Source: a virus
Virus record (IMG/VR): IMGVR_UViG_3300035698_029335
Coordinates: 13,459 to 77,458 of that record
Direction: 5' to 3' (one strand)
Length of the DNA stretch: 64,000 nt
Shown: positions 4,913-51,682 of the stretch, piece after piece
Layout: every line of letters begins with the position of its first letter
How positions within the stretch are numbered: position 1 is the stretch's first letter
The notes under the pieces: model-generated
Seen by the model: the letters and a program-made list of their open reading frames with translations, nothing else
Databases searched by the model: none
Told to the model about the DNA's origin: nothing
Made by a program: the position numbers and the translations under genes

Positions 4913-4928
4913 ACTTACCTCTACAAGC

Positions 4929-4957
4929 ACCATAGGGCACATATTGAATTTTGTCAA
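4929..4957 (-). promoter_or_regulatory. sigma70-type promoter of the endonuclease gene
   Basis: TTGACA-17bp-TATGGT. Confidence 0.6.
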
Positions 4958-8346: not shown

Positions 8347-8816
8347 CGTCTCTCCAGTGTCTCACATACTAGTGGACCTTCTCTAGTGCCATCAAACTCC
8401 ACAACCATTGATGGAAAAGGTGCGCAATTTTTTTGATTACCGAACTTAAGACGACCTCTCACGAAGTAGATCTTTGTAGCTAGCATCACAAAGTCATTAA
8501 AGTATTTTGTGTCAGTACGTGAAGGTATAAGCATGACCGTCATCGTATCATCTTCTTTCGACTCCTCATAACACTTCTTTGCCCACCCCTTTACGTCAGA
8601 ATAAGGAGGGTTAACAAATACAGTATGCCCTTTCCATGATCTACTCAGTCCATCCATATCTTCAGTAAAGAAAACAGGGCACTTGGCGCTAGTAGCAGAA
8701 GCGCAAGGATCTAGTGTAAAATTGTACTTCTCATCTAGCATATCATAGAAGTCTTGCGGGGTGTCCCACTCATCACTCTTATTCGAAAACATTACTTTTG
8801 TTGAACTTTTATCCAT
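8343..8816 (-). CDS. phage DNA N6-adenine methyltransferase (Dam-like)
   Basis: DEWDTPQ, LDPCA, DGL...W, VFVNPPY, PSRTDT. Confidence 0.88.
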   Translation of the reverse strand: MDKSSTKVMFSNKSDEWDTPQDFYDMLDEKYNFTLDPCASATSAKCPVFFTEDMDGLSRSWKGHTVFVNPPYSDVKGWAKKCYEESKEDDTMTVMLIPSRTDTKYFNDFVMLATKIYFVRGRLKFGNQKNCAPFPSMVVEFDGTREGPLVCETLERR

Positions 8817-9327
8817 TACCCTTTCCGCCCTTGTAGTTAGAACCTGACGATCCGAAGCCGTCAGTACCTCTATTACTAATTGTTATTTCTCTATTATACA
8901 ATTCTCCTTCGTCACATATAGCTGCGTCAAAGTGTACAACTGGAATCAGTACTAATTGAGCTATTTTGTCTCCCGGTTCAATGAGTTGAGGGGAGTTAGA
9001 TACATTGTGCAAGATTACAGAAACTTCACCAGCGTACCCTGCATCGAGAACCCCACCGCCAACTATCAAATCTTTCTTACTGGACATACTAGAGCGATTT
9101 TTGACTTCAAGCATATAACCGTGTGGTATCTCAAACTTAAGTCCTGTCCTGAGTTTACTGTTTTTACCAGGGTGTACTACAATAGAACCACTAAGCATGT
9201 TCTTTTTCGGATCCATCTTATTCGGCTCAACGTCAGGGCAGAAAAATACATCGATACCAGCATCACTAGGGTTTTTTCTACTAGGAGAAATCACGTATGT
9301 GTGTGCCTTAGCATACCTTAAGATCAT
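8809..9327 (-). CDS. dut: trimeric dUTPase
   Basis: DAGID, RSS, GVLDAGYAGE, GDKIAQL, RG..GFGSSG. Confidence 0.92.
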   Translation of the reverse strand: MILRYAKAHTYVISPSRKNPSDAGIDVFFCPDVEPNKMDPKKNMLSGSIVVHPGKNSKLRTGLKFEIPHGYMLEVKNRSSMSSKKDLIVGGGVLDAGYAGEVSVILHNVSNSPQLIEPGDKIAQLVLIPVVHFDAAICDEGELYNREITISNRGTDGFGSSGSNYKGGKGNG

Positions 9328-9601
9328 TTGTCACCCCTTGCGGTTATAACCATCTCTTCCTCTCCATCTAAAAATAGAGCGAACTTCTTTTCCTCTACGT
9401 ATTCTTCATATTCACCAATAACGAGTTTTGTAAGCTCGGTACCATCTTCCATTATCTCTAGAGTCATTTCAATCATTTTTCCTCCTTTATTATACAATGC
9501 ATACCATTACCACACTTGCTGCACTCTGGTGGCTTTCTAGGTTCTTTAGTCACTACTTTTTGTTTGTTCCCACAAACACTACACTCATATGTCCTCATTA
9601 C

Positions 9602-10597
9602 TTATCCCAATAATTTAAGGTTGTGTCTTATGGAGCGCGTACTAAAGCCCCACTGTTCATCATAATCTAGCTTTGCCATGTATGGTCTATTCATGTGCAC
9701 AACATCCTTCTTCTTATCATAGCCCCAACACTTGATCCTCGTGACTGTGTTTGTTTCATCGATAGTTTCCAAGATGGCGTAATCTTTTCCTTTTGCCGTT
9801 TTCTTTAGAACAATAGCCTTAGGGATAAACCAAGTTAATTCCATTACTGGATCATATTCAGCTATCGGAGGTACCTTATATGCTTCCAGACGTTCCCTCA
9901 CTGCATCACTCAGTACCATAGCTATAGGATATATACCAGTTAACTGAATAAGGTTCAGTATCCTCTCTTCTCTCGAAAAGTCGCCTTCAGGAGCGTACAA
10001 TTTAATGTTGGCTTCCAGCTGGTCTTTGTTTCTTGGTCGATCGACTGCGACACACGACCAAAAATGCTTAGCCCCAGTGAACCTTTCATCAACTAGCTGC
10101 GCTAGCGCACCTGAACGGCACAATACATCTAAGTTGCCTTTGTTTAGTTTTCCGTATGAAACTCTTTCGTGGAAAAGCAACTCCTCAACGCTATTAAATG
10201 GTCGGTAATTAACTATCTCTTTAATCGCCGCATCACCAACACCCTTTATAGAGCTGAGTGGTTGAATTAGTGTTTTGCTATCTTCTTCAGCAATTTCCCA
10301 CTTTGAACCAGAGGCATTAATATCAAGACCTCTAATTTTATAACCAAGACTCTTAATGATGTTGTTCGCTTCTTCTTTCTTTGCTTCGCCTTGAGCATCC
10401 AAATAAGCAGCCAGCCACTCTGATGGGTGATAAGTCATCAACCAAGCACACTGATAAGAAACCATTGAATATGAAACGGCATGGCTATTCGAGGTCAATG
10501 TACCGTCAGTCAAATAAAATTGATGATCTTCGTGCTCTACCTCTAAGTCATAAGTGTCTATCTCGCCCATTTCTTCACAAGAAATTATCATCGCCAT
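9602..10597 (-). CDS. dnaE: DnaE C-terminal part: 37-aa split-intein C fragment plus 294-aa C-extein
   Basis: TYDLEV...HQFYL.DG.LTSN|SHAVSYS..SYQ.AWL, HhH LSSIKGVG, OB fold; AGGAG SD. Confidence 0.92.
   Translation of the reverse strand: MAMIISCEEMGEIDTYDLEVEHEDHQFYLTDGTLTSNSHAVSYSMVSYQCAWLMTYHPSEWLAAYLDAQGEAKKEEANNIIKSLGYKIRGLDINASGSKWEIAEEDSKTLIQPLSSIKGVGDAAIKEIVNYRPFNSVEELLFHERVSYGKLNKGNLDVLCRSGALAQLVDERFTGAKHFWSCVAVDRPRNKDQLEANIKLYAPEGDFSREERILNLIQLTGIYPIAMVLSDAVRERLEAYKVPPIAEYDPVMELTWFIPKAIVLKKTAKGKDYAILETIDETNTVTRIKCWGYDKKKDVVHMNRPYMAKLDYDEQWGFSTRSIRHNLKLLG
10487..10597 (-). mobile_element. split intein C fragment (DnaE)
   Basis: Blocks F/G ending S-N, followed by +1 Ser. Confidence 0.9.
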
Positions 10598-10629
10598 ATT
10601 CTTCTCCTAATTTGTAGACGCCTTTATTG

Positions 10630-10869
10630 TTACGTCGTATTAATTCTTCTATTACTTCCAAGTGTTTTCGTTCGAATTCTTCTCTTCTGTAGTTGTATAA
10701 ACTCACCCCTACGGATCAGTTTATATTGTATCACATATGTTTGCCCTTCATAGGAGAAACATGGAAGCTCCTGCAATATTTCAACGACAAGAACGAACTT
10801 GCCGCGAATATCATTAAAGCCAGACCAATTCGCACCTGTTAGCACTAAGTCGCCTACTTCGAACTTCAT
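10630..10869 (-). CDS. GDLV-family protein with a non-family C-terminal tail
   Basis: MKFEVGDLVLTGANW...PCF; lacks the family ATIVSK-like end. Confidence 0.6.
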   Translation of the reverse strand: MKFEVGDLVLTGANWSGFNDIRGKFVLVVEILQELPCFSYEGQTYVIQYKLIRRGEFIQLQKRRIRTKTLGSNRRINTT

Positions 10870-11043
10870 TCAATTGCCTTTATCTTCGTGGTTACATAGC
10901 CAATAGCCTGCCACTATCCATCATCACTAGTGTACCTTTGGCGACAAGAATTTTTGTCGTTTTCCTTCTTTTTGTCACCATGGCAACCAGCACCAGAAAT
11001 ATTCCATGCCTTTAATGCATTGAGATTCCTAGTTGCTGCAATT

Positions 11044-11196
11044 TTATTCCTGCGTCTTTTCTTTTTTCTCTTTCCCACATGTCCCACCGGTCGCCATATC
11101 TTCGACGACCTTACAGTCATCACCTGAAAACTCTTCAGACCAATGATCATTCCAGCTTTCACCAGTCAATTGTATGAGATCGCCGACCTGAAACAT
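11044..11196 (-). CDS. short GDLV-family protein (not in the ORF track)
   Basis: MFQVGDLIQLTGESW..., 50 aa. Confidence 0.5.
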   Translation of the reverse strand: MFQVGDLIQLTGESWNDHWSEEFSGDDCKVVEDMATGGTCGKEKKEKTQE

Positions 11197-11207
11197 GTTT
11201 TTTGTCA

Positions 11208-11540
11208 TTATTTTGCCAAGGAGAAGGTGCCATAAACATTATCACCGGTCTCATACTTCAACTCAAAGTCAACTGTTACCTCCTGATCGAACTCTAGTAC
11301 CTCCATGATGATCGTCTTTGCTTTGCGATCATATTCCCAACCAGCTGCAGCGGAACCAGAACAACCAAGCCCTACGACTTCACCATCAGTATGCTCGAAT
11401 GTGTGAGTTCCAGTGCTCAAGTTCTGTGCATTGAGACCGCTTTCGAGGAACATAAATTTAGCCATGTACATTTTCTCGCCGTTTGTCGTGACGAGACTAA
11501 ACTCCTCGAAGCCATGTGAGTCTGTACACACCTTCTTCAC
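11208..11540 (-). CDS. hypothetical protein
   Basis: Co-oriented, coupled ORF. Confidence 0.55.
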   Translation of the reverse strand: MKKVCTDSHGFEEFSLVTTNGEKMYMAKFMFLESGLNAQNLSTGTHTFEHTDGEVVGLGCSGSAAAGWEYDRKAKTIIMEVLEFDQEVTVDFELKYETGDNVYGTFSLAK

Positions 11541-11743
11541 GCAACTACTTTTGAAATCAACTTGATGGTCTCACGTTTGTACAAATTGTTGTCGGTCGCG
11601 TGCACGTCTGGCGTACACCATTCAATTCTGTAAAATCGCATAGCATAAATAATTACTCCAATCACAATGCCATAACCTAGCCTGGCGAACCTTTCGCCTG
11701 AAGCATGTCTCACTAGGTCTCCAATATGAACTTTTCGCATCAC
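11537..11743 (-). CDS. GDLV-family protein
   Basis: IGDLVRH...GIV...YRIEW...IKLISK. Confidence 0.65.
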   Translation of the reverse strand: MMRKVHIGDLVRHASGERFARLGYGIVIGVIIYAMRFYRIEWCTPDVHATDNNLYKRETIKLISKVVA

Positions 11744-11985
11744 AAAACCTTTGTCTTAGCTATCAGAGAAAGGGAAGTTGCGCTTCTGGTGATAATGAGT
11801 TCTCCATACTCTAAGCGATACACAAGCTTGTTGTCCCAATAGTGTGACCTATATTTTTCTACAATTAGAAAAGGTCGAACTGTAGTTATGGGAACCCCGT
11901 CGTTCAGCCGCTCTTCATCAACCAAACAAACTAAATCACCAATTTGAAAACTATAATCATCACAGTCATCATCACAGTCATGCAT
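11740..11985 (-). CDS. GDLV-family protein
   Basis: FQIGDLVCL...LSLIAK. Confidence 0.65.
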   Translation of the reverse strand: MHDCDDDCDDYSFQIGDLVCLVDEERLNDGVPITTVRPFLIVEKYRSHYWDNKLVYRLEYGELIITRSATSLSLIAKTKVL

Positions 11986-11993
11986 TGGGGTCC

Positions 11994-12200
11994 TTAAGTT
12001 GTAGAAACAAGTGAATCACAGGGCATTTCAATTCTCACAGCACACTGATTAATGCGTTTTTCCATTATATGATTTCGCCGGGTATGTGCACCAGAACTGC
12101 ATGCCTTCAAGTAGTTCACTTCTGTTCTTCCTGAAGCTCTCAATAAATAAAGTCTTGCCTCACCTTTACCTAGCTGATAAGATACCATCACATTCATCAT
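11994..12200 (-). CDS. hypothetical protein
   Basis: Co-oriented ORF. Confidence 0.35.
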   Translation of the reverse strand: MMNVMVSYQLGKGEARLYLLRASGRTEVNYLKACSSGAHTRRNHIMEKRINQCAVRIEMPCDSLVSTT

Positions 12201-12430
12201 AACTTTTCTGCTTTCTGTATTAGGAGGAGCGGCTTGTTTGAGCCTTGTTGGTTGCCAAAGAGCGAATGTTTCTCGCCAAAGGCAACAACGTAAGTGAGAT
12301 TTGTATCTGCATAGTTTTGATAGACAGAATCATACACACTAATAACTACACCTATACCATGCTCATTGATCAATTTATTAGAGTATATACTTGAAAGAGA
12401 TACTAAGTCGCCGACCTCTATTTCTTCCAT
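12197..12430 (-). CDS. GDLV-family protein
   Basis: IEVGDLVSL...GIGVV...Y.V.F...LLLIQK. Confidence 0.65.
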   Translation of the reverse strand: MEEIEVGDLVSLSSIYSNKLINEHGIGVVISVYDSVYQNYADTNLTYVVAFGEKHSLFGNQQGSNKPLLLIQKAEKL

Positions 12431-12434
12431 TTTA

Positions 12435-12659
12435 TCACCCTTTCGATATTTTATATTTCTTCCAGTTTCTGAGAGCGCCTCCGTATTCTTCTCGTTCGAC
12501 TACTTCGCAGGTGCCATCAAAAGGACAACTCGTGCCTGAAAGTAAAACATATGAATCATTTATTCCATCTGTAGCAACTACTAGAAATCGACAAGTACCC
12601 GTGTCTTCATTAATATCAATGTCGCTGCTGTATATAAGGTCTCCAACTTTTAGATACAT
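12435..12659 (-). CDS. GDLV-family protein
   Basis: LKVGDLIY. Confidence 0.6.
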   Translation of the reverse strand: MYLKVGDLIYSSDIDINEDTGTCRFLVVATDGINDSYVLLSGTSCPFDGTCEVVEREEYGGALRNWKKYKISKG

Positions 12660-12859
12660 TCTTCTAGCTCCTTTACTCTCGCGACAAGTTTCAAACTAGA
12701 GCCTTTGTGGGTCCTATTTGAATAGGTTGAATGAGGTTTATTATCTTGCCAGAGAATGATATATCTCTCGCCCTTAAAAGCAAAAGTAATTATGCCCAAT
12801 GCATTGTTCAAAATGGGACTCTTCTTGCATACTAAATCGCCTACTTTAAACATCAACAT
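12650..12859 (-). CDS. GDLV-family protein
   Basis: FKVGDLVC...GII...YIILW...LKLVAR. Confidence 0.65.
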   Translation of the reverse strand: MLMFKVGDLVCKKSPILNNALGIITFAFKGERYIILWQDNKPHSTYSNRTHKGSSLKLVARVKELEECI

Positions 12860-12957
12860 AATTATTCGTCCGACAAATTAATTGCCCGTACAACTCTTGC
12901 GACTGGGTTTGTAGCAGCAGCAATCAACTGAAGGTTTGTGGTTTTGATTGCGAAGCT

Positions 12958-13194
12958 TTAAGAAATGCCATACACAAACTCAAGCATAGGCAACTCTTCT
13001 TTGATCTGATGCTTATAGAGGCTATCTTTGGCTCGTGGGTGGTGGTCTGCTTTTAACTCAAAGCCATGCAAACCACACTTTCCAGACCACACTTTCCTAA
13101 TGGCTTGCTCATCTGCAGAAGCAAAATAAATGTCGCCCATTGAAGACGTTCCAGTGCTATCGCACCGCCTAATCAAAACATACATACCCAGCAC
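12958..13194 (-). CDS. hypothetical protein
   Basis: Co-oriented ORF. Confidence 0.45.
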   Translation of the reverse strand: MLGMYVLIRRCDSTGTSSMGDIYFASADEQAIRKVWSGKCGLHGFELKADHHPRAKDSLYKHQIKEELPMLEFVYGIS

Positions 13195-13209
13195 CCTTTC
13201 GTCTGCAAA

Positions 13210-13536
13210 TTATCTTAAAATAGTACCGCGAAAGCATCTTGTTATTGTGTGCCACTCACCGTCCCACGATGAATCACCCAACATCAATTGCCCTTTTTTG
13301 GTGTATACACCAACTCCATCAGTAACACCAAATTCATTCAGCAGACCGTTGAGTCGCTCTCTAGTGGTGGTCGTGTTCCATCCGGCAGTAGTAATGTGCA
13401 GCCCGAGATTAGAGAACTTTGCAATCTTGTTGCCGCGCAAAAACATCTCACCATCACGCACACATGTGTTTGCTTTGCCGAAGTTTTCTCCATCGAAAAA
13501 GGCTGCAGCTGCTTCTTTAGTGATCTTTCGTGACAT
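13210..13536 (-). CDS. hypothetical early protein
   Basis: First gene after a promoter, AGGAG SD; GW.TTTT.ERLN motif. Confidence 0.65.
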   Translation of the reverse strand: MSRKITKEAAAAFFDGENFGKANTCVRDGEMFLRGNKIAKFSNLGLHITTAGWNTTTTRERLNGLLNEFGVTDGVGVYTKKGQLMLGDSSWDGEWHTITRCFRGTILR

Positions 13537-13563
13537 GCGTAGCTCCTGGTTTTTGTTAAATTA

Positions 13564-13592
13564 AGTTTAGCAGATCATTTTGCATTTGTCAA
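13564..13592 (-). promoter_or_regulatory. early promoter, ATGATCTG class
   Basis: TTGACA-aatgcaaa-ATGATCTG-c-TAAACT. Confidence 0.85.
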
Positions 13593-13678
13593 ATATGTTA
13601 CGGCTCATATTCAACCACGCACTGTACCAGCATTAGTTCGTTCTGGTTCCGGTGCGCGAAAAGTGTTTTCGAGTCATC

Positions 13679-13900
13679 TCAACTCCTCAGTTGTTTTCGC
13701 CCATGAGACAATTCAGCAAGAGCAAAGCCTCGAATGAAGGCTTTGAAGAGTGGAATATTACAACCCACTTCACCGCCTTTCTTGACTAGCGTCATTAATT
13801 CATCATGCAACAATGGCACACATGTACCACCATCCTTGAAGTGCATTTTTCCCATTCGCTGAGCTTCTAAGAGTACTTCGCGAGCGTAAATCACAGCCAT
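13679..13900 (-). CDS. hypothetical protein
   Basis: AAGGA SD, co-oriented. Confidence 0.55.
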   Translation of the reverse strand: MAVIYAREVLLEAQRMGKMHFKDGGTCVPLLHDELMTLVKKGGEVGCNIPLFKAFIRGFALAELSHGRKQLRS

Positions 13901-13915
13901 TTTTGTTTCCTTCTT

Positions 13916-14113
13916 TTAAAAGATGCTCTTTTTAGCCGAAAGAGCGCACTGTTCCATCGATTCATCAACTGTGAGAGGTCGCAAGCCCATGATTTTATAG
14001 ATTTTTCCGGTAACTGCACGAATCTTCTTTTCACAGGCGACTGCCTCTGCCAACGTATCAGTGCATGCACAGACTTGCTTTGTTTCGTTCAAGATCACAT
14101 ACATATTGAACAC
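13916..14113 (-). CDS. hypothetical protein
   Basis: Follows a promoter. Confidence 0.5.
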   Translation of the reverse strand: MFNMYVILNETKQVCACTDTLAEAVACEKKIRAVTGKIYKIMGLRPLTVDESMEQCALSAKKSIF

Positions 14114-14133
14114 CTCATCTTTCTTATTTTCTT

Positions 14134-14162
14134 ACTCTACCAGATCATTTTGGTAAAATCAA
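14134..14162 (-). promoter_or_regulatory. early promoter, ATGATCTG class
   Basis: TTGATT-ttaccaaa-ATGATCTG-g-TAGAGT. Confidence 0.7.
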
Positions 14163-14166
14163 CCTT

Positions 14167-14661
14167 CTATTCGCATTTCGTTGAGGCAGGTGGCAATTCG
14201 TTTTGAGTTGCAGTCTTTATTAAGCCGACTCTCTCTGTATCTTCTTCTGTCCAATAAGTATCTTCGCTGTGAGTGGAACCATCATACAACCAGCCGGTCC
14301 TATCTCTAATATCCGTATGGGTTAGTTCGTGCGGCAATGCTAGTGGTATAGTGTATATGTCACTATTGGAAGTATTGTATCCAGTAACACAAATATCATC
14401 TTCTACCATATACGCGTCTTTGTATTGTTGTGTCACATCTAATGCAGCACTAAAGAACTCGATAGTGACTCCTTCATAGTTCCTACCAAGAAGAGCTAAT
14501 ACTCTTTCAGCATACACTCTCTCATCAACGCTCATGCCAATCAAGCATGCTCCAGAAGGCGCACTTTTGTGACCACCCCTTGCGAACTCGTTCTTACATG
14601 GTCCTTCTGGAATACAAGAGTTCATTAAGCAGACGGCAAGTATCATGATAGCATATTTCAT
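14167..14661 (-). CDS. putative lipoprotein with HExxH motif
   Basis: MKYAIMILAVCLMNS-C signal peptide/lipobox; PHELTH. Confidence 0.55.
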   Translation of the reverse strand: MKYAIMILAVCLMNSCIPEGPCKNEFARGGHKSAPSGACLIGMSVDERVYAERVLALLGRNYEGVTIEFFSAALDVTQQYKDAYMVEDDICVTGYNTSNSDIYTIPLALPHELTHTDIRDRTGWLYDGSTHSEDTYWTEEDTERVGLIKTATQNELPPASTKCE

Positions 14662-15221
14662 TCGACTACGCTCTTGATTGCCTTCTTGTCTAAGCCAATA
14701 ATAGCTCTATTAAGTGAACGCATGATGTGTTCCACTTTATTAGTTTCATCTCTGGTTACAGTGTCGGCATTTAGATGAGCTTCAAAGATGCATAGCTGCG
14801 CCACCAACTTTCTCGTTGCAATAATTGCAGTTGCGGTGCACTTATCATGACGACCCTTTACTCGTGCGGCTCGCTGCTGAGCTTCTTTCTTAGTCACGCC
14901 AAAGGCTTTTCTGGCTTCTATACGCTTTTTGTTCCACAATTCAATGATTGGCAACGAGAGATCATCGTCCTTCATGAAGAAGAGGCATGTTCGCTTATTT
15001 GAATTCAAAAAATGTATGAACTCATTCCACAAACCTGCCTCTTCTTGTGAAAGGTCGACATGTCTTGTAGCAGCTGCTTTTGTCATAGCATACGTCTGGG
15101 CTCCTAACGATCTCCTGCTGCTGTCCCAACGATTTGTTATCGACCACATTCGCTCTGTAAATTGCTCCAGGCGCTTCATTATTTCGCTCGCCAACGCTGA
15201 CGGCTCCTTATACTCTTTCAT
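14658..15221 (-). CDS. hypothetical protein
   Basis: GAGG SD, coupled to the next gene. Confidence 0.6.
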   Translation of the reverse strand: MKEYKEPSALASEIMKRLEQFTERMWSITNRWDSSRRSLGAQTYAMTKAAATRHVDLSQEEAGLWNEFIHFLNSNKRTCLFFMKDDDLSLPIIELWNKKRIEARKAFGVTKKEAQQRAARVKGRHDKCTATAIIATRKLVAQLCIFEAHLNADTVTRDETNKVEHIMRSLNRAIIGLDKKAIKSVVE

Positions 15222-15230
15222 CCTTTCCTC

Positions 15231-15395
15231 TTATTTGTATACTTTCGTTAATACACTGCTTGCATGCAAGAGTGTGGCACCTTTGTAGGTGCCAACTACC
15301 CACTCGACGCGTACAAATTGGTAGCCTATAGTTTGCACTATTTTTCCTAAGCTACCAGCTTCCAAGCGTACTTCTTCACCTATCTTAAAATACAT
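15231..15395 (-). CDS. GDLV-like small protein (not in the ORF track)
   Basis: MYFKIGEEVRL..G.LGKIV....VRVEW...LTKV, 54 aa. Confidence 0.55.
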   Translation of the reverse strand: MYFKIGEEVRLEAGSLGKIVQTIGYQFVRVEWVVGTYKGATLLHASSVLTKVYK

Positions 15396-15485
15396 CTCAT
15401 ACTCTTATTAAGGGGTGGGTGAAGTACAATGTCCAGCGGCGAACACAACTCTTATAGCGCTGATGTTTTACCGCTTTAATTATAA

Positions 15486-15806
15486 TCACGCCGATCCGTA
15501 TTTCGTCAGGGCTCGTTCTAGGAAGCCACCATCGAAAAGAGACTCGAACACTTCTTGTGGGATGCCCACCTTTGCGTGACTGAAGCGTGTCTTATTTTGA
15601 GCCATATTGAGGCGCTGTACTGCGATGTGCACCCCGAGCTTACGATTAGGGTTGTCGGCTGGATTCACAACACTGTACGCTGCGTCGAACGTACCATTGT
15701 CGTTTACAGTGTACACTAGGGTGCCCATCAAACGACCTCGCTCCGAGCTGTAATCGTTCTTGTTTTGGTGGAAATGTTTTACTTTAACTTTTTTAACTTC
15801 TTGCAT
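15486..15806 (-). CDS. hypothetical protein
   Basis: GAGGGG SD; D.PNRKLG..IA..RL motif seen in phage proteins. Confidence 0.6.
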   Translation of the reverse strand: MQEVKKVKVKHFHQNKNDYSSERGRLMGTLVYTVNDNGTFDAAYSVVNPADNPNRKLGVHIAVQRLNMAQNKTRFSHAKVGIPQEVFESLFDGGFLERALTKYGSA

Positions 15807-15845
15807 GTGTTCTTCCCTCAGCCTTGAATGGCTATTTGTTTACTG

Positions 15846-16109
15846 TTACTTCTCTTCGTCTTCGTCTATACTTACTGCTCTGCCTTTAATTAATGACAAA
15901 GGCACCCGGCAGCTGCGACCTAAATTCTGTAAGTACACCTCATATATACAGGTTAAATGTCCACCCACAACAGACGTATAAGGTCCTGAAAGAATGTACC
16001 CAACCCCAGCCACAAACTTTCCTTCTTCTTGCTTGTAAAGGCGACGTCGCATCGCGTGATCGCTCATGCTTATTTCGACCAAGTCACCTTCGTGATATAC
16101 TTCTTTCAT
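15846..16109 (-). CDS. GDLV-family protein
   Basis: YHEGDLVEI...GVG.I...YEVY. Confidence 0.6.
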   Translation of the reverse strand: MKEVYHEGDLVEISMSDHAMRRRLYKQEEGKFVAGVGYILSGPYTSVVGGHLTCIYEVYLQNLGRSCRVPLSLIKGRAVSIDEDEEK

Positions 16110-16314
16110 GCTAGTTCACCTTCGGAGAATACACAGCTCGCTAGTTTGATTCTAAGCTCACGAGTCATACAGGTCCCTCTTTTATTCCACAATACTTTAG
16201 CTAAGTGCAGTTGCTCTGCATAAGATACATGTTACCGATGACAATACCTATGTCGCCCTTAGATCCCTCTTCCTCTTGTAGGAGCTGCACTAAGTCGCCG
16301 ATGTTATATTGCAC
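16106..16314 (-). pseudogene. frameshifted GDLV-family gene
   Basis: VQYNIGDLVQL...DIGIVI hits TAG; the other frame continues AKVLW...IKLAS to a stop coupled to the next ATG. Confidence 0.55.
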
Positions 16315-16315
16315 T

Positions 16316-16531
16316 TCAATCTCCTTCGGGTATATATACAGCTTTCGCTAGTTTGACGTATGAGGCGTTATCAATACAGTGAACAGTCTGCCCTTCTAGC
16401 TCTCCCCACGACACCCTAATATAACGATCGTGCATTATATCGATGACAATACCTATATCACACACATGTTTTCCTTGCATGAAATACACTAAATCACCAA
16501 CGCTATAGTGCACCTTTCTTTTCTTCATCAC
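16316..16531 (-). CDS. GDLV-family protein
   Basis: YSVGDLVY...DIGIVI...IRVSW...VKLAK. Confidence 0.65.
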   Translation of the reverse strand: MMKKRKVHYSVGDLVYFMQGKHVCDIGIVIDIMHDRYIRVSWGELEGQTVHCIDNASYVKLAKAVYIPEGD

Positions 16532-16547
16532 TCACCTTGTTGCAGTG

Positions 16548-16599
16548 AAGTGAAGGTGTGACAACAGTGTTATTCAAAGTAGTTGTCACACCTTCACTT
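16548..16599. terminator. 18-bp perfect inverted repeat
   Basis: aagtgaaggtgtgacaac-16nt-gttgtcacaccttcactt; the T-run lies on the plus strand. Confidence 0.5.
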
Positions 16600-16603
16600 T
16601 TTC

Positions 16604-17806
16604 TTAGTAGTCGATAGCCACTACTTTTTCGTGAGTAGTGAAGTATGGATCTTTGGCTCCTCGAGAGTCAGTCATCCACAGTCTAGTACACTTTGAATTG
16701 ATGGGCTTTTCAGCATACATATCTGTCAATACAATGCAGCCATCAAAGCTTCGCTCGTTGATATATCGCGCAGGTGCATTGAAATCAGTACCACCACACA
16801 TCACTCGTTCGTGCGCCTTTCGTTCGTTCTTCTTCCAAATATACACCAAGTTGTCATCAACAACTGTGTCGAAAGGTACAACAGTGAATTCTGCCACTTC
16901 TGCAAGCTTATTCAATTCACTATAGAACGCTGACAACATCATGTCGCTGACTGAGCCAGACTGATCGATTGCGATTGCGATCTTTGCAGTTCTGAGGGTT
17001 TTTCGTCCGCTGTGAATGTATGGGTATCTACGGTTAATCTTCTTGACTGAAGATTGGTGGCTTGATCGTTGTGAGGTCTTCACAAAGTAACGAAGTACCG
17101 ACTTCCAATCAACCTTTGGAGTGATTCGGTCAATGATTTCTTGGCGCATGCTCGATGACACCGTGCCCCAACCACCCTTCATGCTTTGTTGCGCAGCTGA
17201 GGATATCGCCCCTTTCAATCGCTGCCTTGCAAGTTCCTTGATAGCCTCTGGGATCTTTCCGTCTTTCGACCAGCCATTGTGGGAATCAAACCCCTCACCA
17301 TTGCCGTCGCTGTCACCCTCACCGCCTTCGCCGTCGCTTGGCTGACCTCCTGGAATCCTTATTCCCTTCACTCCGAGACCAGATTTGAAATACCACTCTG
17401 CAGATTTCCCGCGCGGCATTTTCAACTTTTCTGGCAAGATTGCCTTAGCGTAAAGTTTCTTGATGTCGTCTCTGGGTTGGGCGGGGAAAATTTCGCTATT
17501 GATCGCTGCATCGGTCGCATAGTTCCATCGCTTTGTCATGCCTTCGGCAGGCATGCGTTCAGTGACATGTCCCAGGACGAGGTGCAGGAATTCATGAATC
17601 AAAACAAGCCTGATCTCTGCATCAGTGAGCTTGGAGAAGAAGTCGGCATTATATAGCATATCAAAACGCCCACTATGTGGGTTGACCCGAACTCCTGCAG
17701 TCGGAATCATCGTCGTAGGCGATTTAGTGACATGGCGGGAGAGTGCAGCATAGAATGGCTCTTCAGCCAAGAGTCGAGCAACGTGCATGTTCAGATCGAA
17801 AGTCAT
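16604..17806 (-). CDS. metallopeptidase-like plus VWA domain protein
   Basis: HEFLH (HExxH), N.ATD.AIN, G/D-rich linker, MIDAS DQSGS, GGTDF, LTD. Confidence 0.85.
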   Translation of the reverse strand: MTFDLNMHVARLLAEEPFYAALSRHVTKSPTTMIPTAGVRVNPHSGRFDMLYNADFFSKLTDAEIRLVLIHEFLHLVLGHVTERMPAEGMTKRWNYATDAAINSEIFPAQPRDDIKKLYAKAILPEKLKMPRGKSAEWYFKSGLGVKGIRIPGGQPSDGEGGEGDSDGNGEGFDSHNGWSKDGKIPEAIKELARQRLKGAISSAAQQSMKGGWGTVSSSMRQEIIDRITPKVDWKSVLRYFVKTSQRSSHQSSVKKINRRYPYIHSGRKTLRTAKIAIAIDQSGSVSDMMLSAFYSELNKLAEVAEFTVVPFDTVVDDNLVYIWKKNERKAHERVMCGGTDFNAPARYINERSFDGCIVLTDMYAEKPINSKCTRLWMTDSRGAKDPYFTTHEKVVAIDY

Positions 17807-17843
17807 CTTTTTTCCTTTTGGTTCTGGTGATCTGCCTGGAAAC

Positions 17844-17872
17844 ATTATAGCAGATCATTGTGGTTATGTCAA
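17844..17872 (-). promoter_or_regulatory. early promoter, ATGATCTG class
   Basis: TTGACA-taaccaca-ATGATCTG-c-TATAAT. Confidence 0.88.
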
Positions 17873-17980
17873 ATACGTTTCCCAAGTATCTTTTTCAGTT
17901 TACATCTGCGATGATCTCGGAAACTTTTCTAATATCTTCAGATTTCATAATGATCCCTGCCTTTCAAAGATCGTAACAAA

Positions 17981-18109
17981 TCATTCTCCTGTTGTCAACG
18001 CTTTGCTTATCATGGTGGCGGAATAGTCACAATGCCCACTATTGAAAGTAATCTCTTCCATTGTACCGTCACTCATTGCGAAGAACGGGTCACCAATCTC
18101 AAACTGCAT
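17981..18109 (-). CDS. internally deleted GDLV-family gene (42 aa)
   Basis: AGGAGG SD; MQFEIGD-PFF...DYSATMISK keeps both family ends. Confidence 0.5.
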   Translation of the reverse strand: MQFEIGDPFFAMSDGTMEEITFNSGHCDYSATMISKALTTGE

Positions 18110-18124
18110 AAATACCTCCTTGCT

Positions 18125-18153
18125 AGGATATCAGATCATCTCACTTCTGTCAA
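18125..18153 (-). promoter_or_regulatory. early promoter, ATGATCTG class
   Basis: TTGACA-gaagtgag-ATGATCTG-a-TATCCT. Confidence 0.8.
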
Positions 18154-18164
18154 CAACTACTCGT

Positions 18165-18193
18165 AAAGAAAAAGAGGGGCTTGCGCCCCCCTC
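18165..18193 (-). terminator. intrinsic terminator after the AAA gene
   Basis: GAGGGG...CCCCTC stem followed by TTTTT. Confidence 0.75.
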
Positions 18194-18213
18194 AATCACC
18201 ATTCAACTACTTC

Positions 18214-19356
18214 CTAGCTCTTAGCAGCTGCTTCTTCAGCCTCTTTCTTGGCTTGCATCCCAGTCAACAACTCACGAAGGTAAATAGAGACAGCTGTTTT
18301 CTTGCCATTAATAGTCACAGGTTGTGCATGCAAAGCAACAGTGTTTTCCGTCGGACCAACATTGAGTCCTCCCCAGATCTTCATGGCTGCTTCCGATGGC
18401 AAGGTGATGAAGTATTCACCAAGATTCTTGATCTGCTTCTTGGTCAACTTCTTAGCGAGCGACTCCATTGTTGCCATCTTCTCGATCAAGGTCAAGTGCT
18501 CAATAAGACCGTAGTCTTTAGTCAGCTCGAGCTTACCCTTGTCGATGATGTCAGCTGGCGACACTTGACGGTCATAAGATCCGAAGAAGTCTGAGAACGC
18601 ACAGGCTGCTTCAAACCCTACATAGCCAAGAGACAGAAGACGAATCTTATCGCTCCACTCTTCGAGCAGCCCTGATTCTCGCATGGTGTCATTCAGACGC
18701 TTCCAGGAGCGTCGCGAAGGGTACTTCTTATTTGCCACGAAGTCATCCTTCGCGTTCTCAAGGTGAGGAATGTTCTGATTCACGAAATCAAGAACAACCT
18801 TGTCGAGGTTATTATGCCCCAGCTCTCTGCCATCGGCATCACGAGCAGGAGCTTTGCCCCATTGCATCCAATCTTCAACAGAAGGAGAAATGTCGTATAC
18901 AGTCCAGCGATCGAGTTCTGCCGGATCCATCTCACCAACTTGATATTGTGCCCCCTCGTCACCCCCATTAACTGCCGCGACTACCAAAGTGTCCTTGTGT
19001 AGGGCAAAGCCGTTGAGCTTTCGCGAGTCAGTAAGCTCGAAGATGCCTTGACGTACTTCGATTACGGCACGGTCAACTTCATCGAGGAACAACATTACTG
19101 GGCTGCAGCATGCATCTTTAAACCAGTCTGGCGGGTTCCAAGCCGTTGCTGCATCTTCAATAGTCGGCAACCCAACCAGGTCACCTTCAGTCATTTGTGA
19201 GGCACGTCGTTCGACGACGCGAAGACCAAGATCTGCAGCTGCTTGGTAGACGACCTCAGATTTACCAATTCCATGTCGACCACGGATCATTAGCGGGTGC
19301 TTTGCTTCAAATACGAATGGAGCGATTTCACGGAACGTAGCAAAGTCAATCTTCAT
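18214..19356 (-). CDS. MoxR-like AAA+ ATPase
   Basis: Walker A GRHGIGKS, Walker B LFLDEVDRA, sensor AAVN, MDPA..DRW, SRRSW. Confidence 0.88.
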   Translation of the reverse strand: MKIDFATFREIAPFVFEAKHPLMIRGRHGIGKSEVVYQAAADLGLRVVERRASQMTEGDLVGLPTIEDAATAWNPPDWFKDACCSPVMLFLDEVDRAVIEVRQGIFELTDSRKLNGFALHKDTLVVAAVNGGDEGAQYQVGEMDPAELDRWTVYDISPSVEDWMQWGKAPARDADGRELGHNNLDKVVLDFVNQNIPHLENAKDDFVANKKYPSRRSWKRLNDTMRESGLLEEWSDKIRLLSLGYVGFEAACAFSDFFGSYDRQVSPADIIDKGKLELTKDYGLIEHLTLIEKMATMESLAKKLTKKQIKNLGEYFITLPSEAAMKIWGGLNVGPTENTVALHAQPVTINGKKTAVSIYLRELLTGMQAKKEAEEAAAKS

Positions 19357-19402
19357 TTCTCATCCTTTAGCAGAGAGTGGTTTGTTTGTCTCTCTTGGAA
19401 CC

Positions 19403-19431
19403 AGTCTATCAGATCATTTCTAATGTGTCAA
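19403..19431 (-). promoter_or_regulatory. early promoter, ATGATCTG class
   Basis: TTGACA-cattagaa-ATGATCTG-a-TAGACT. Confidence 0.85.
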
Positions 19432-19567
19432 CGTTCCTGGTGGTGTTTTTTATTCTTCTTTATAAACAGATAGTTATGCGGCTGTAGCTCTTATTTCTGT
19501 TCCTCCACAGTTCCTCTTTAAGGCTGCGCAGGGGAATGATCACTTTTGAGATCAAAAAAGCCAGACA

Positions 19568-19923
19568 TCAGCCTGGCAGTCTTCCGTCATATTTATCGAA
19601 GTCGCTTTCCCACATCTCCGCCACCGTATATCCTTGTTCTTGCAGAGCCTTTTTTCTTTTCAGCCACTCGTTGTGTAATGCACCATATTTTTTTTGACAA
19701 CCGGGTTTGTTCCCTCAGCTAGGTATTTGTCTGGCGAGTGTGCCGAGCGCACATTGGGCAACCTGCTGCACTACTTATGTGATTGCTAGGTGATTGCATA
19801 AAGACTCCGTGTTCTAAGCACACTATCTTTACTTTTGTGCGCGCCCTTGTAGTCAGTCAAATTATAGTTATAAGTGCCTTTGTGCACTAACCTAGCTCGT
19901 TTGATAAACTCATCTGTAGTCAT
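19568..19923 (-). pseudogene. miniature degraded copy of the repeat-module endonuclease
   Basis: MTTDEFIKRARLVH..., one frameshifted module, catalytic core missing, tail GYTV.EMWESDFDK with DNA near-identical to 50633-50687. Confidence 0.8.
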
Positions 19924-19934
19924 TGTTCTCCTAC

Positions 19935-20165
19935 TCATTCTTGATCCCACTTCCTGAACATCGAGACCTGATACCAGTCATCATCCTGGGTGGTGTACTT
20001 CTGACATGTGACATACTCTCCATTCCATTGGAAGGCTGGAGCGCCGTCGCCCCATTGTACAGCCATCGCAACGATAAGTTTAAATTCTCCTTTGAGACCA
20101 AAGTTCGCCCAACTTTCCCCTGTCAATTGTACAAGATCACCTATTTCAATTTCTTGTTCACTCAT
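19935..20165 (-). CDS. GDLV-family array unit 5
   Basis: MSEQEIEIGDLVQLTGESW. Confidence 0.75.
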   Translation of the reverse strand: MSEQEIEIGDLVQLTGESWANFGLKGEFKLIVAMAVQWGDGAPAFQWNGEYVTCQKYTTQDDDWYQVSMFRKWDQE

Positions 20166-20401
20166 GGGATGTATACATTACTTACAATGGTGGCTGAGTA
20201 GTCTTCGTAGCCACTTACGTAAGTTTCTTTACAATAAATGCTCAGGTAGTCGTAGATGTTGCCACTATCATAAGCAATTCTCGGGTGCTTCCCCACACCA
20301 ATGATAAGTGTCATTGTGTTGTACAACTCTGGAAAGTCACTCCGCCATGTAAGCCCAGTCAACTGCACAAGATCACCTATTTCGAATTCTTGCTCTTTCA
20401 T
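20162..20401 (-). CDS. GDLV-family array unit 4
   Basis: MKEQEFEIGDLVQLTG...DYSATIVSNVYIP. Confidence 0.75.
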   Translation of the reverse strand: MKEQEFEIGDLVQLTGLTWRSDFPELYNTMTLIIGVGKHPRIAYDSGNIYDYLSIYCKETYVSGYEDYSATIVSNVYIP

Positions 20402-20592
20402 GGTTTATATACTTTGCTTACAATAGTGGCTGCCCACCTTTCATTGACGTAATACAATTCGCCATTGTTAATAAACGCTGGTCCAAACATGTCTGATGTT
20501 GTTAATAATACAACGCTATCTTTAAGTTCTCCCCACCAATCTGCACCAGTTAATCTTACCAAGTCTCCTATTTCAAACTCTTGTTTTTTCAT
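20398..20592 (-). CDS. GDLV-family array unit 3
   Basis: MKKQEFEIGDLVRLTG...AATIVSKVYKP. Confidence 0.75.
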   Translation of the reverse strand: MKKQEFEIGDLVRLTGADWWGELKDSVVLLTTSDMFGPAFINNGELYYVNERWAATIVSKVYKP

Positions 20593-20784
20593 GGTCTACA
20601 TACCTTACTTACAATAGTGGCTGAGAAGTCGGTTTCGTATTCATCATAATAATAAATACTCCAGGTTTGCCGACAGGTCGAGAATGAGCCAACTGGAAAT
20701 ACCGGATCACCTTCAGCGTCATAACCAGTAATTCTGACCAGTCAGAATTACCAGGTCACCTATTTCAATTTTTTGTTCACTCAT
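20589..20784 (-). pseudogene. GDLV-family array unit 2, frameshifted
   Basis: MSEQKIEIGDLVILTG then an early TGA; the other frame reads VRITGYDAEGDPVF...DFSATIVSKVCRP. Confidence 0.75.
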
Positions 20785-20984
20785 GGATTGTATACCTTAC
20801 TTACAACTGTAACTTCCCATTCCTCGCCAACATAATATTTTTCACAATCAATAGGATCACAAAAACATGGCTGATAGGAGTTATTGAGTGACGTTATCAA
20901 TACAGTTTTGTTTTTAACTTCTTCCCACCAAGCATCACCAGTCAATTGTACAAGATCACCTATTTCAATTTCTTGCTCTTTCAT
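20781..20984 (-). CDS. GDLV-family array unit 1
   Basis: MKEQEIEIGDLVQLTG...VTVVSKVYNP. Confidence 0.75.
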   Translation of the reverse strand: MKEQEIEIGDLVQLTGDAWWEEVKNKTVLITSLNNSYQPCFCDPIDCEKYYVGEEWEVTVVSKVYNP

Positions 20985-21012
20985 GGTTTATATACTTTGC
21001 TTACAATAGTGG

Positions 21013-21663
21013 CTATAGTTTATACTTTTTAATGTCGCGCTCCTCTACCGTTACAGCACAAGTTCCACCAACAGGCATCAAGAGGTATTTTTTCGCCCCC
21101 ATTGCATGAGATGTTGGGACCTGGTGGTTAGAAGCAACGACGAGAGCGGCTTTCCACTCTGCAATATCTTTGAGGTGCTTCTTCAGAGTAACAAGCGCAC
21201 CATCAGCGAACTTTGGCTTTTCAGTGTATGCTATATAATAGCCTTCTGCGTACTTGCTGTGCACAAATTGCTTGTAAGTTCTCCTTGGCACAACATAGTC
21301 TTCTTCTTCAAAAATCCTGCTTATTAGTGCGCCCCAATAGCCAGTCTGATTGAGTTTGTTTGTCTCAAAGTAGAACTTAGCCATGATCATTGCACGTGGT
21401 CGCAATTCTGTTAAGTAATCACGCTTGTGCTTTTCTTCAAGCGCTAAGTAAGCCGGAGCGGTAGTTTCTTCGATTTTCTCAAAAGTTTTCATTTGCGCGT
21501 AGCTGAGATCACCATATTTTCGAAGAGTTTGCTCAATAGACTCAAGAAATTTCTTGTTCCACTCCGAAGTGTTGTCGGAGAGGGCTTCTGCTGTGTTTTG
21601 AATTCTCTCAAGGATCTGGTCAGGCATTCTAAACTCCTCTGTATGTATACTCCATCTTATCAC
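21013..21663 (-). CDS. hypothetical protein with C-terminal SH3-like module
   Basis: W...FLESI......LS..Q N-terminal motif; PKF..GALV C-terminal module. Confidence 0.65.
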   Translation of the reverse strand: MIRWSIHTEEFRMPDQILERIQNTAEALSDNTSEWNKKFLESIEQTLRKYGDLSYAQMKTFEKIEETTAPAYLALEEKHKRDYLTELRPRAMIMAKFYFETNKLNQTGYWGALISRIFEEEDYVVPRRTYKQFVHSKYAEGYYIAYTEKPKFADGALVTLKKHLKDIAEWKAALVVASNHQVPTSHAMGAKKYLLMPVGGTCAVTVEERDIKKYKL

Positions 21664-21902
21664 GGATCACTTTGAGAGTCAACCTCCATTTCCTCGCACG
21701 CCACCAACAAGCGCAGGCAGCGCAGCGCTATGTATTGTGGTCTCCTGGCTTTTCGAAACTTAACTACAAACCATGCCGATGGTAATACTGGCTTCTCAGT
21801 GACTACGCCGACGTCGCTCTGCAAATACCCAAAGAGACTGGTCGAATATTTGTCATCAGCTATGCATACCAAGTCGCCAACACTAATATCTTCTCGGTTC
21901 AT
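21660..21902 (-). CDS. GDLV-family protein
   Basis: ISVGDLVC...GVV...FVVKF...LRLLV. Confidence 0.65.
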   Translation of the reverse strand: MNREDISVGDLVCIADDKYSTSLFGYLQSDVGVVTEKPVLPSAWFVVKFRKARRPQYIALRCLRLLVACEEMEVDSQSDP

Positions 21903-22786
21903 AGTTCACGCTCACGCACTTTACTTGCAAGAGTGGCTGTATAATCGATCGCGTATTTGTGGACCCTAATCAATAGAATGTCTTTGGTAGCTACATACTT
22001 TTCGAGCATCAGATCTTTCTTTTGTACAACTTCAAGCTGCCCATGTATTTCTCTAAAATGATGTGGACCATCAACTTCTATTATCACCTTCATCCTTTTC
22101 GCATATATATCTATTTGCTTTCTCGACGTCAAGTTCATATCGAATAATACACTTTTTATCTGCCTGTTACTCTTAAAATCATATGTCGGAAATCTTTCCT
22201 TAATGTACATATACATCCACTTCTCTGGTTTAGACTTATACTTGTGCATTTGCTTTATACATTTGTTGTAGAAATCTTCTGGATTTTCTTTCCTCCATCG
22301 AGCAAGTACTTCAGCTCTCTTGTCTTGCACATCTTGTCTGGCTGAAGTTTTCATTGCTGTCTTTGAAGCACGTTCTCTAAAATCCTCTCTTTTGTTCAGA
22401 TTCCCAAGGAGTCTTGAGCGGCGAAGCCTCTCGGCAGGATTAGCCATTATCGATTTTGTTACAACTTGACCCATCCTAAGTTTTGCCTTCTCGGTCATGG
22501 TTTCATACCCCATCTCTTTACATCTGCTATTACTGCAGTTGTGCTCCTCCTTATAGTGTGGCGACAAATCGGCAGATACAAAGCTGCACAACTCACACGC
22601 TATAAGGTCTCCCAATTCTACACCCCTTTCCTTACAAAGCTCACAAACGTATCTGTGATTGAAGAAAGCCTTTATACTGTATAGTTCATAATCGCAAGCT
22701 ACAGCAGTTCCAAACCTCTCTTCGCAATCTCTCTTATTGGCAGCTTTTCTCCGCATTTTGTCCTGAATTTGTGATCTTTCGTGCAT
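21899..22786 (-). CDS. Vsr/DUF559-like endonuclease adjacent to the DnaE split intein, probably C-terminally disrupted
   Basis: SKPE, QIDIY, IIEVDGPHH, KD, LLIRV; the tail DYTATLASKV is GDLV-family sequence. Confidence 0.7.
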   Translation of the reverse strand: MHERSQIQDKMRRKAANKRDCEERFGTAVACDYELYSIKAFFNHRYVCELCKERGVELGDLIACELCSFVSADLSPHYKEEHNCSNSRCKEMGYETMTEKAKLRMGQVVTKSIMANPAERLRRSRLLGNLNKREDFRERASKTAMKTSARQDVQDKRAEVLARWRKENPEDFYNKCIKQMHKYKSKPEKWMYMYIKERFPTYDFKSNRQIKSVLFDMNLTSRKQIDIYAKRMKVIIEVDGPHHFREIHGQLEVVQKKDLMLEKYVATKDILLIRVHKYAIDYTATLASKVREREL

Positions 22787-32281: not shown

Positions 32282-32285
32282 TATT

Positions 32286-33841: not shown

Positions 33842-33862
33842 GTTTCATGTTTCATGTTTCAT
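33829..33862 (-). repeat. (ATGAAAC)x4 plus ATGAAA tandem repeat
   Basis: Plus strand reads ttcatgt x4 then ttcat at the IntN/endonuclease boundary. Confidence 0.95.
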
Positions 33863-51561: not shown

Positions 51562-51568
51562 ATTTTGC

Positions 51569-51597
51569 ACTATACCATACTCGTTGCTTTTTGTAAA
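51569..51597 (-). promoter_or_regulatory. sigma70 promoter, probably leaderless
   Basis: TTTACA-17bp-TATAGT with extended TG, 7 nt before the ATG. Confidence 0.6.
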
Positions 51598-51682
51598 GGA
51601 GAAGTTGTTGTTCTTACCCGGCAAGGGTGTAATAACACCTTAGTATTTAGTACTGTCGGGCGCTATTTGAAGAGCTGTCCAT

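Follow-up and report, generated by a model that had tools for sequence, protein, structure and literature searches.

A fractured phage dnaE gene with its split-intein halves 12.1 kb apart and an apparently relocated accessory block inside its homing endonuclease gene

In the phage DNA described here, dnaE, the gene of the DNA polymerase III (PolIII) alpha subunit, is broken at an intein, and its two parts are separated by a free-standing homing endonuclease gene which is itself interrupted by a large block of accessory genes. The window analysed is a stretch of 64,000 nucleotides, bases 13459-77458 of the linear 77,458-bp IMG/VR record IMGVR_UViG_3300035698_029335. This record is a fragment, about 43% complete according to the CheckV estimate, and it ends about 5.4 kb past the place that the block appears to have occupied formerly. 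Negative window coordinates denote record sequence before window position 1 (genome 80-6946 corresponds to window -13378 to -6512). Near-identical DNA turned up solely in salt-lake metagenomes, and the source of the window is a large lytic-type phage of such metagenomes. All genes around the insertion locus lie on the minus strand, in the arrangement listed below, where IntN and IntC are the N- and C-terminal halves of the intein and GDLV is a multi-copy family of small genes.

22699..25578, minus strand: N-terminal part of dnaE followed by IntN; extein residues 1-861, with PHP, NTPase and finger domains (Pfam PHP, DNA_pol3_alpha and finger)
22702-22995, minus strand: IntN, 98 residues, starting CLHFDELV; boundary placed from relatives with an uninterrupted dnaE, at residue 860/861
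21963..22786, minus strand: endonuclease core, residues 1-275, with a Ros/MucR-like zinc finger, a helical region and a Vsr-like catalytic core; broken after LLIRV
21963..21968, minus strand: junction 1, microhomology TAGGGT, where the endonuclease core is joined to a GDLV tail
21899..21962, minus strand: 3'-terminal part of a GDLV-family gene (HKYAIDYTATLASKVREREL followed by the stop), at present translated as the endonuclease C-terminus, with an array repeat at 21918-21939
10712..21962, minus strand: inserted block of 11,251 bp, all genes on the minus strand, about 30 genes inside the endonuclease gene
10712..10869, minus strand: 5' part of a GDLV gene (MKFEVGDLVLTGANW...YKLIRR); family profile E 1.1e-8 alone and 4.7e-10 when rejoined with the 21899-21962 tail
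10705..10711, minus strand: junction 2, microhomology TAGGGGT with one extra G, where the GDLV head is joined to the endonuclease tail
10575..10706, minus strand: endonuclease gene, orphaned 3' end of 42 codons (SLYNYRR...GVYKLGEEYGDDNFL), identified by a tail profile and by tblastn to the endonuclease tail of the related locus L001
10487-10597, minus strand: IntC, 37 residues, ending ...LTSN, after which the extein resumes with S
9602..10597, minus strand: IntC and the C-terminal part of dnaE, the latter of 294 residues with an HHH_6 domain (Pfam; relatives)

The open reading frame (ORF) 22699..25578(-) encodes the alpha subunit's N-terminal part, with 861 residues preceding IntN. The comparison set for dnaE comprised 69 related viral loci, with up to 10 kb of flank around the C-terminal part (dnaE-C). 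In 67 of them dnaE runs uninterrupted across the exact intein point, which identifies the extra residues of the window as the two halves of a split intein; an intein occupies the same site in two of the 69 loci, both of them compact. The host gene is thus distributed over two same-strand ORFs at the intein point, the first ending with IntN and the second starting with IntC, as in the fractured genes described previously. From the IntN stop to the IntC start the window counts 12,101 nt, so that the intein halves stand 12.1 kb apart instead of about 1 kb as in the relatives. Since the intein blocks are intact and conserved with 27 relatives, DnaE would presumably still have to be made by protein trans-splicing.

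The endonuclease ORF, 21899..22786(-), encodes 295 residues. Its 5' side is family-like, the start overlapping the end of the IntN ORF. The C-terminus, in contrast, reads ...LLIRV HKYAIDYTATLASKVREREL, and the last 20 codons include the 22-nt core of the GDLV array junction repeat. A 285-residue protein, P0001, is identical to it. The nine full-length homologues of this endonuclease (36-46% identity) all carry about 45 residues beyond the L[IV]R[VIL] strand, of the form ...YDYR..F....L.K..E.L.N..PGVYxLGEEYG..N.L. The missing 42-residue tail was located 11.26 kb from the break, in the frame 10575..10706(-), which reads SLYNYRREEFERKHLEVIEELIRRNNKGVYKLGEEYGDDNFL and extends over the IntC start codon (10597) with an overlap of 23 nt. 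A profile of the nine homologous tails, run against the 2199 six-frame peptides of the record, gave a sole match at 10578-10715(-), with an E-value of 1.4e-10, the second-best match being at 2.4. This bears out the initial annotation, made from the sequence of the window, in which an alternative frame near 10710 was taken for the endonuclease tail overlapping the IntC start; alignment of its YNYRR...GVYKLG segment with homologues had been proposed as a check, and all nine indeed continue to PGVYxLGEEY. The overlap between the endonuclease gene and the IntC ORF is likewise present in L001. The orphaned tail carries the ribosome-binding site (GGAG) and the ATG of the IntC ORF, and supplying these two elements may be a reason why it has stayed intact.

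What replaces the tail comes from the GDLV family. The 22-mer at 21918-21939 is identical at 20 of 22 bases to the array junction repeat CAGCCACTATTGTAAGTAAAGT; matches to this repeat with at most three mismatches number five in the window, as against none expected from 100 shuffles. At the other end of the block, the ORF 10630..10869(-) starts with the family head MKFEVGDLVLTGANW...PCF (GDLV-LTG..W...PCF) and then enters unrelated sequence, passing through the endonuclease tail in a different frame. Read on the minus strand, junction 1 is ...TTGATTAGGGT joined to CCACAAATAC, and junction 2 is ...CTGATCCGTAGGGGT joined to GAGTTTATAC. A crossover within TAGGGT restores an in-frame endonuclease of 317 residues, ending ...LLIRVSLYNYRR...GEEYGDDNFL, and the same rejoining yields an in-frame GDLV protein of 75 residues ending ...DYTATLASKVREREL; both restored frames require that one G be dropped at the 10705-10711 junction. 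With a profile of four array genes, the rejoined GDLV protein scores 37.1 bits, compared with 32.7 for the head alone. The main elements of this picture had been recognized in the initial annotation: an endonuclease passing from LLIRV into a GDLV-array C-terminus, a family head lacking its family tail at 10630..10869, a common TAGGG(G)T at 21963-21968 and 10705-10711, and a rejoining that restores both genes one base off. The family comparisons and the repeat alignment agree with each of them.

Logan contigs of four salt-lake runs (X1 to X4) from four studies were placed on positions 9500-23500; X1 may be the source sample. Both junctions are spanned by contigs of X1 and X3, junction 1 also by contigs of X2 and junction 2 also by contigs of X4, and all of these show 0 differences and 0 gaps. 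A sequencing slip of a single assembly can therefore not account for the extra G, and the junctions are real, not the product of misassembly. An assembly chimera was accordingly rejected, independent contigs bridging the junctions.

The part of the endonuclease that has been cut off belongs to its nuclease domain. Pfam gives a weak DUF559 match, and an endonuclease profile run against PDB sequences retrieved only the Ros zinc finger 2jsp (E 8e-5). The AlphaFold model of one homologue (P0002; mean pLDDT 89.8, and 92-98 across the nuclease domain and tail) aligns clearly in VIA-align with E. coli Vsr (1cw0_A), with a Z-score of 12.5 and a root-mean-square deviation of 2.9 Å over 122 residues, in the range 204-344; Foldseek on the whole multi-domain model gave weak E-values, 0.027 for Vsr. 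The residues following the break thus belong to the nuclease fold. The break in the window protein corresponds to residue 300 of P0002 and is followed by 20 unrelated residues, the lost segment comprising a helix (314-326) and a strand (330-334) of the model. Judged on this homologue's model, about 30% of the nuclease domain is absent. E237, D239, H243 and D258, invariant or nearly so in two homologue alignments, all lie upstream of the break. Because of the lost helix and strand, the endonuclease is probably inactive in this phage.

By its motif and by the fold modelled for its homologue, this protein belongs to the EDxHD family of homing endonucleases, whose prototype is I-Bth0305I (Taylor et al. 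2011, PMC3239194). It shares with the family an N-terminal DNA-binding region and a C-terminal Vsr-like nuclease domain with conserved E, D, H and D. It differs from I-Bth0305I in that the N-terminal region is a Ros/MucR-type zinc finger, not NUMODs, and in that the last ~42 residues of the nuclease domain are missing. I-Bth0305I (3R3P) was not among the matches of the PDB-sequence profile search or of Foldseek; E. coli Vsr matched best.

A search with the endonuclease alignment yielded 27 viral loci, and all of them show the contiguous order that the initial annotation had suggested looking for: the N-terminal part of dnaE, IntN, endonuclease, IntC and dnaE-C follow each other on one strand within about 0.8-1.3 kb. 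Of the complete genes in this set, nearly all have core and tail within one ORF. In metagenome contigs, a search for related loci retrieved the already known contig only. In the window, by contrast, it is not the endonuclease itself that meets IntC between the halves, only its orphaned tail overlapping it. The locus is a derived variant of the fractured-gene arrangement.

The block contains, among other genes, about 17 GDLV mini-genes, and its guanine-plus-cytosine (GC) content is 43.7%, against 41.7% for the rest of the sequence. Its main features, all on the minus strand, are the following.

21013-21663, minus strand: 216-residue gene with no Pfam or PHROGs match
19935..21014, minus strand: tandem GDLV gene array with junction repeats of about 77-80 bp, 80-95% identical (self-blastn, alignment)
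19593-19950, minus strand: remnant of another endonuclease gene
19560-19577 and 18172-18193, minus strand: strong terminator-like hairpins (consensus scan)
18214-19356, minus strand: MoxR-type AAA ATPase (Pfam and PHROGs)
17844..17872, minus strand: perfect TTGACA-17-TATAAT promoter-like site (consensus scan)
19403-19431, 18125-18153 and 13564-13592, minus strand: similar promoter-like sites (consensus scan)
16604-17845, minus strand: DUF2201 / VWA metallopeptidase-like gene (Pfam and PHROGs)
14167-14661, minus strand: lipoprotein

The AAA, DUF2201 and 216-residue genes are found at none of the 69 dnaE loci, within the flank of up to 10 kb around dnaE-C. Their usual place was recognized by tblastn of all ORFs of the window's phage (G000) against three whole relatives, G001, G002 and G004, of which G002, about 75-88% identical in its core genes, those of replication included, is the closest. 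Apart from the block genes, G000 is collinear with all three over the whole shared length. In these relatives the block genes lie about 18-25 kb downstream of dnaE. The G004 orthologue of window -6790..-6512 immediately precedes the 216-residue gene, AAA and DUF2201, arranged in this order at about 20-28 kb downstream of dnaE-C; G001 carries AAA, DUF2201 and a GDLV gene like 16316..16531, likewise in this order, at 25 kb downstream of dnaE-C. In G002, a terminator, two GDLV genes and homologues of 15846..16109 and 14167..14661 come directly after the orthologue of -7991..-7419, which is the block's own order. At the corresponding place of G000, the terminator is followed by unrelated genes, encoding a 62-residue membrane protein, a 176-residue lipoprotein and a SprT-like protein. 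Block genes and backbone are equally diverged from G004 and G001, AAA being 59% and 44% identical, respectively, and dnaE 57-62% and 49-53%. In addition, the minus-strand motif AATGATCTG..TA..AT occurs five times in the block, three times beside the old place and once elsewhere. Synteny, a divergence like that of the backbone and this common class of promoter-like motif together show the block to be native to the phage, and not foreign: by comparison with the relatives, it appears as an accessory region belonging to the phage itself, shifted about 18 kb upstream of the place it occupies in them. This native origin goes beyond the initial annotation.

How the block came to lie inside the endonuclease gene has to be read from its two ends. 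The route proposed, to which we give a probability of about 0.6, is that the phage's general recombination functions would have released the block as a circle from its old place; that this circle would have opened inside a GDLV gene; and that it would then have joined the endonuclease gene right after the LLIRV codons, at the 6-bp TAGGGT, by illegitimate recombination involving no integrase, one extra G being gained at one junction then or later. The opening is placed within one gene because the tail and the head of a single GDLV gene lie at opposite ends of the block, with both junctions at the same endonuclease base. As noted initially for the window, no integrase is present: the 77.5-kb record, itself a fragment, contains neither a Phage_integrase (PF00589) nor a Resolvase (PF00239) domain, and no recombinase or transposase domain was found among the block proteins scanned (Pfam, PHROGs). 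Integrase-mediated integration was rejected on this ground. Promoter-like motifs recur inside the block, none of them at its ends. Insertion of an ~11.3-kb block through a reciprocal-looking microhomology exchange inside a GDLV gene, as claimed initially, stands; entry as a circle, the other part of that claim, is the most economical route but is not proven, as it could not be told apart from template switching between two paralogues.

Several observations weigh against the circle. Neither its junction nor the empty site, both of which had been suggested as checks, was found in the contigs of the salt-lake runs or by 21-mer searches: the Logan contigs, which drop rare forms, show no such sequence and no alternative joints; the 21-mer of the endonuclease empty site is absent from viral and metagenome contigs, and that of the restored GDLV join from viral contigs, as exact strings only. 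The exchange is off by one base (net +1), unlike a strictly conservative reciprocal crossover. The block begins at almost the same gene (GDLV 21660..21902) as the one that begins the G002 region, so that the circle would have opened near its own closing joint, a coincidence of roughly a few percent. No recognizable scar or hybrid GDLV gene is left at window -7991 to -8460, the old place, and no recognizable circle-closing joint is seen upstream of 10869. Rejoining the GDLV gene gains 4.4 bits only, and its head and tail could stem from two different paralogues. Finally, with a fragmentary record that ends so close beyond the old place, a second copy of the block may exist further on; self-blastn found none in the 77.5-kb record.

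Several of these points would be explained if the block had been copied instead of excised. In the course of replication or break repair, a growing 3' end within the endonuclease gene (...ATTAGGGT) would re-anneal at the TAGGGT of a GDLV gene, copy the block, and return through the same motif of another GDLV gene, a paralogue of the first, the original block being lost later or lying beyond the contig end. Microhomology at both junctions and a net gain of one base are typical of such synthesis-dependent, non-conservative joining, the block would start where the ancestral region starts without any coincidence being needed, and the contig, which ends about 5.4 kb past the old place, leaves room for a second copy beyond its end. 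Nevertheless, the 77.5 kb contain no such copy and the old place is now devoid of block genes and of a hybrid GDLV gene, while CGTAGGG is found at the matching position in no other gene of the record, the KLIRRV segment being peculiar to this GDLV gene. Two switches at the same base and a later deletion are also needed, and template switching is considered rather unlikely. An origin from a co-infecting related phage, the block arriving as a circle or fragment and the resident counterpart being lost independently, looks less likely still. Co-infection did occur, since the intein and the endonuclease must have come by homing, G002 having no intein; the GC content of the block is slightly higher, and in the closest relative, G002, the region seems to begin without AAA and DUF2201. 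This is countered by the divergence of the block genes from G004 and G001, which equals that of the backbone, by a gene order matching that of the downstream region of the relatives, by the promoter-like motif class common to the block and the neighbours of its old place, and by the fact that exactly these genes are missing there.

The 6-bp direct repeat flanking the insert could also be viewed as the target-site duplication of a transposable element that had entered the endonuclease gene. The block ends show no terminal inverted repeats (8 of 40 positions match), and the transposon reading was rejected for this reason; moreover, no transposase, integrase or resolvase was found, the ends of the insert are halves of one member of a small-gene family that rejoin in frame, and the cargo consists of ordinary phage genes syntenic with the relatives, all of which makes this reading highly improbable. 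The same very low probability attaches to an artefact or misreading, be it a chimeric assembly, gradual gene gain or an ancestral island lost in the relatives. The source is indeed a metagenome assembly, and small genes evolve fast; yet contigs of other samples and studies bridge both junctions exactly, a 6-bp overlap is far too short for an assembler to join, the endonuclease core and tail are intact and fit exactly, and all 27 related loci are compact.

The locus can be compared with three types of known systems. Split-intein genes whose halves come from separate transcription units and are joined by trans-splicing are represented by cyanobacterial dnaE-n and dnaE-c and by the polymerase of Nanoarchaeum equitans. 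Compared with these dislocated genes, the halves described here are only 12 kb apart, and their separation is evidently recent, since the endonuclease and the insertion scars are still readable. The fractured genes of Dassa et al. (2009) unite a split intein and a homing endonuclease that is free-standing; dnaE is among their eight host types, their two endonuclease types include a Vsr-like one, and the sampling sites included a hypersaline lagoon (PMC2677866). As in these, dnaE is here broken at the intein site into two same-strand ORFs, in a phage, with a Vsr-like endonuclease gene between the halves, its 3' end overlapping the IntC ORF and supplying its start. In the published cases, however, the endonuclease gene alone separates the halves, whereas here 11.25 kb have been placed inside an endonuclease gene that is truncated as a consequence. 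The model of the same authors leads from an intein through endonuclease invasion (the 'fractured gene') and endonuclease loss to dislocation of the halves, its step IV (PMC2677866). Dislocation there comes after the loss of the endonuclease; here it is the dislocation itself that destroys it.

The third comparison concerns the PeSL mini-circles, which were shown experimentally to be excised from the variable regions of lytic T4-type phages with no integrase involved (Arbiol et al. 2010, PMC2839356). They measure about 0.4-1.4 kb and arise by crossing over within repeated cassettes (PMC2839356). Like them, the block is made up of accessory genes from the variable part of a large lytic phage genome and has repeated regulatory or junction sequences on its flanks. 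PeSL modules are able to exit as circles and to enter again at another site with no integrase; in the present case no circle was observed. The block is also far larger (11.25 kb), and on entry two unrelated genes crossed over at a 6-bp microhomology, the junctions lying in coding sequence and not in repeated cassettes.

The origin of far-apart split-intein halves from contiguous inteins has been known only as a model. The present locus has the look of an intermediate, found in nature, of the dislocation step proposed for split-intein evolution: a fractured dnaE caught being pulled apart, with both junctions defined to the base and many compact relatives representing the 'before' state. It suggests that the order of steps may differ from the model, a single insertion being able to destroy the endonuclease and to dislocate the halves together. 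In addition, the locus illustrates, in a clean natural case, how kilobases of accessory genes can be relocated at a 6-bp microhomology within the genome of a lytic phage, with no integrase involved. A limited literature search found no published description of a fractured gene with such an insertion. More tentatively, the GDLV-cassette region might regularly shed circles as is the case for PeSL mini-circles or integron cassettes, though without an integrase, and the landing of such circles in homing endonuclease genes might be a general route from fractured to dislocated split-intein genes, of which this locus would be the first intermediate caught. If this speculative extension were true, one circle landing would at once kill the endonuclease, fix the split state and uncouple the halves.

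The insertion also bears on the expression of the two parts. dnaE-C now lies behind predicted terminator-like sites of the block's minus strand and downstream of predicted promoter-like sites in the block, so that the two dnaE halves are likely transcribed separately. The AATGATCTG..TA..AT sites are at window 13564, 14134, 17844, 17970, 19403 and 3504 and at genome 3459, 5016 and 5351; the motif has GATC in the spacer next to an extended -10, and it may mark one temporal class of transcription units.

Other interruptions are seen in the replication genes of this phage group. The dnaE of G001 is in at least four pieces (L001 6668-8248 / 8430-10106 and 11285 / 11394): an additional split intein, with about 180 nt between its halves and no endonuclease, lies farther upstream, and another break, of about 108 nt, is found in the C-terminal part. 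Inserts of 0.5-1.4 kb occur elsewhere in the N-terminal part of dnaE in L038, L057, L059 and L060, around residues 188 and 576-597 in the numbering of the window protein. They are probably further inteins, which would make dnaE an intein hotspot in this group. A helicase-like replicative gene is also fractured in the window, at 30356-35194(-): its three ORFs (33845-35194, 32286-32795 and 30356-32377) match a single collinear region of the relatives.

The small 'GDLV ... ISKV' proteins number about 25-30 and form two clusters, one at genome 80-6946 and the other at window 10630-21902. No Pfam or PHROGs match was obtained for the two GDLV genes scanned or for the GDLV head ORF. In the same genome region, G001 has an analogous multi-copy family starting MKSEITKGALYLFDDAFR instead of GDLV proteins. 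The GDLV gene at 10914-11208(-), adjoining the distal end of the block, looks broken: its head ORF, 11044-11208, enters lysine-rich sequence and is overlapped by a second frame, 10914-11162. Within the block, contigs of X1 and X4 have loose ends flanking a stretch of about 50 nt at 17335-17388, which encodes the acidic glycine-rich linker of the DUF2201 gene, GEGGEGDSDGNGEG, which points to a variant allele or to some related sequence present in the population. Finally, the full-length paralogues 3737-4957(-) and 50605-51624(-), of 406 and 339 residues, contain internal repeats of the form ...FI.RA..VH...Y.Y...; the remnant at 19593-19950(-) in the block is of the same family, which has several copies in G002 and likely consists of further free-standing endonuclease-like genes.

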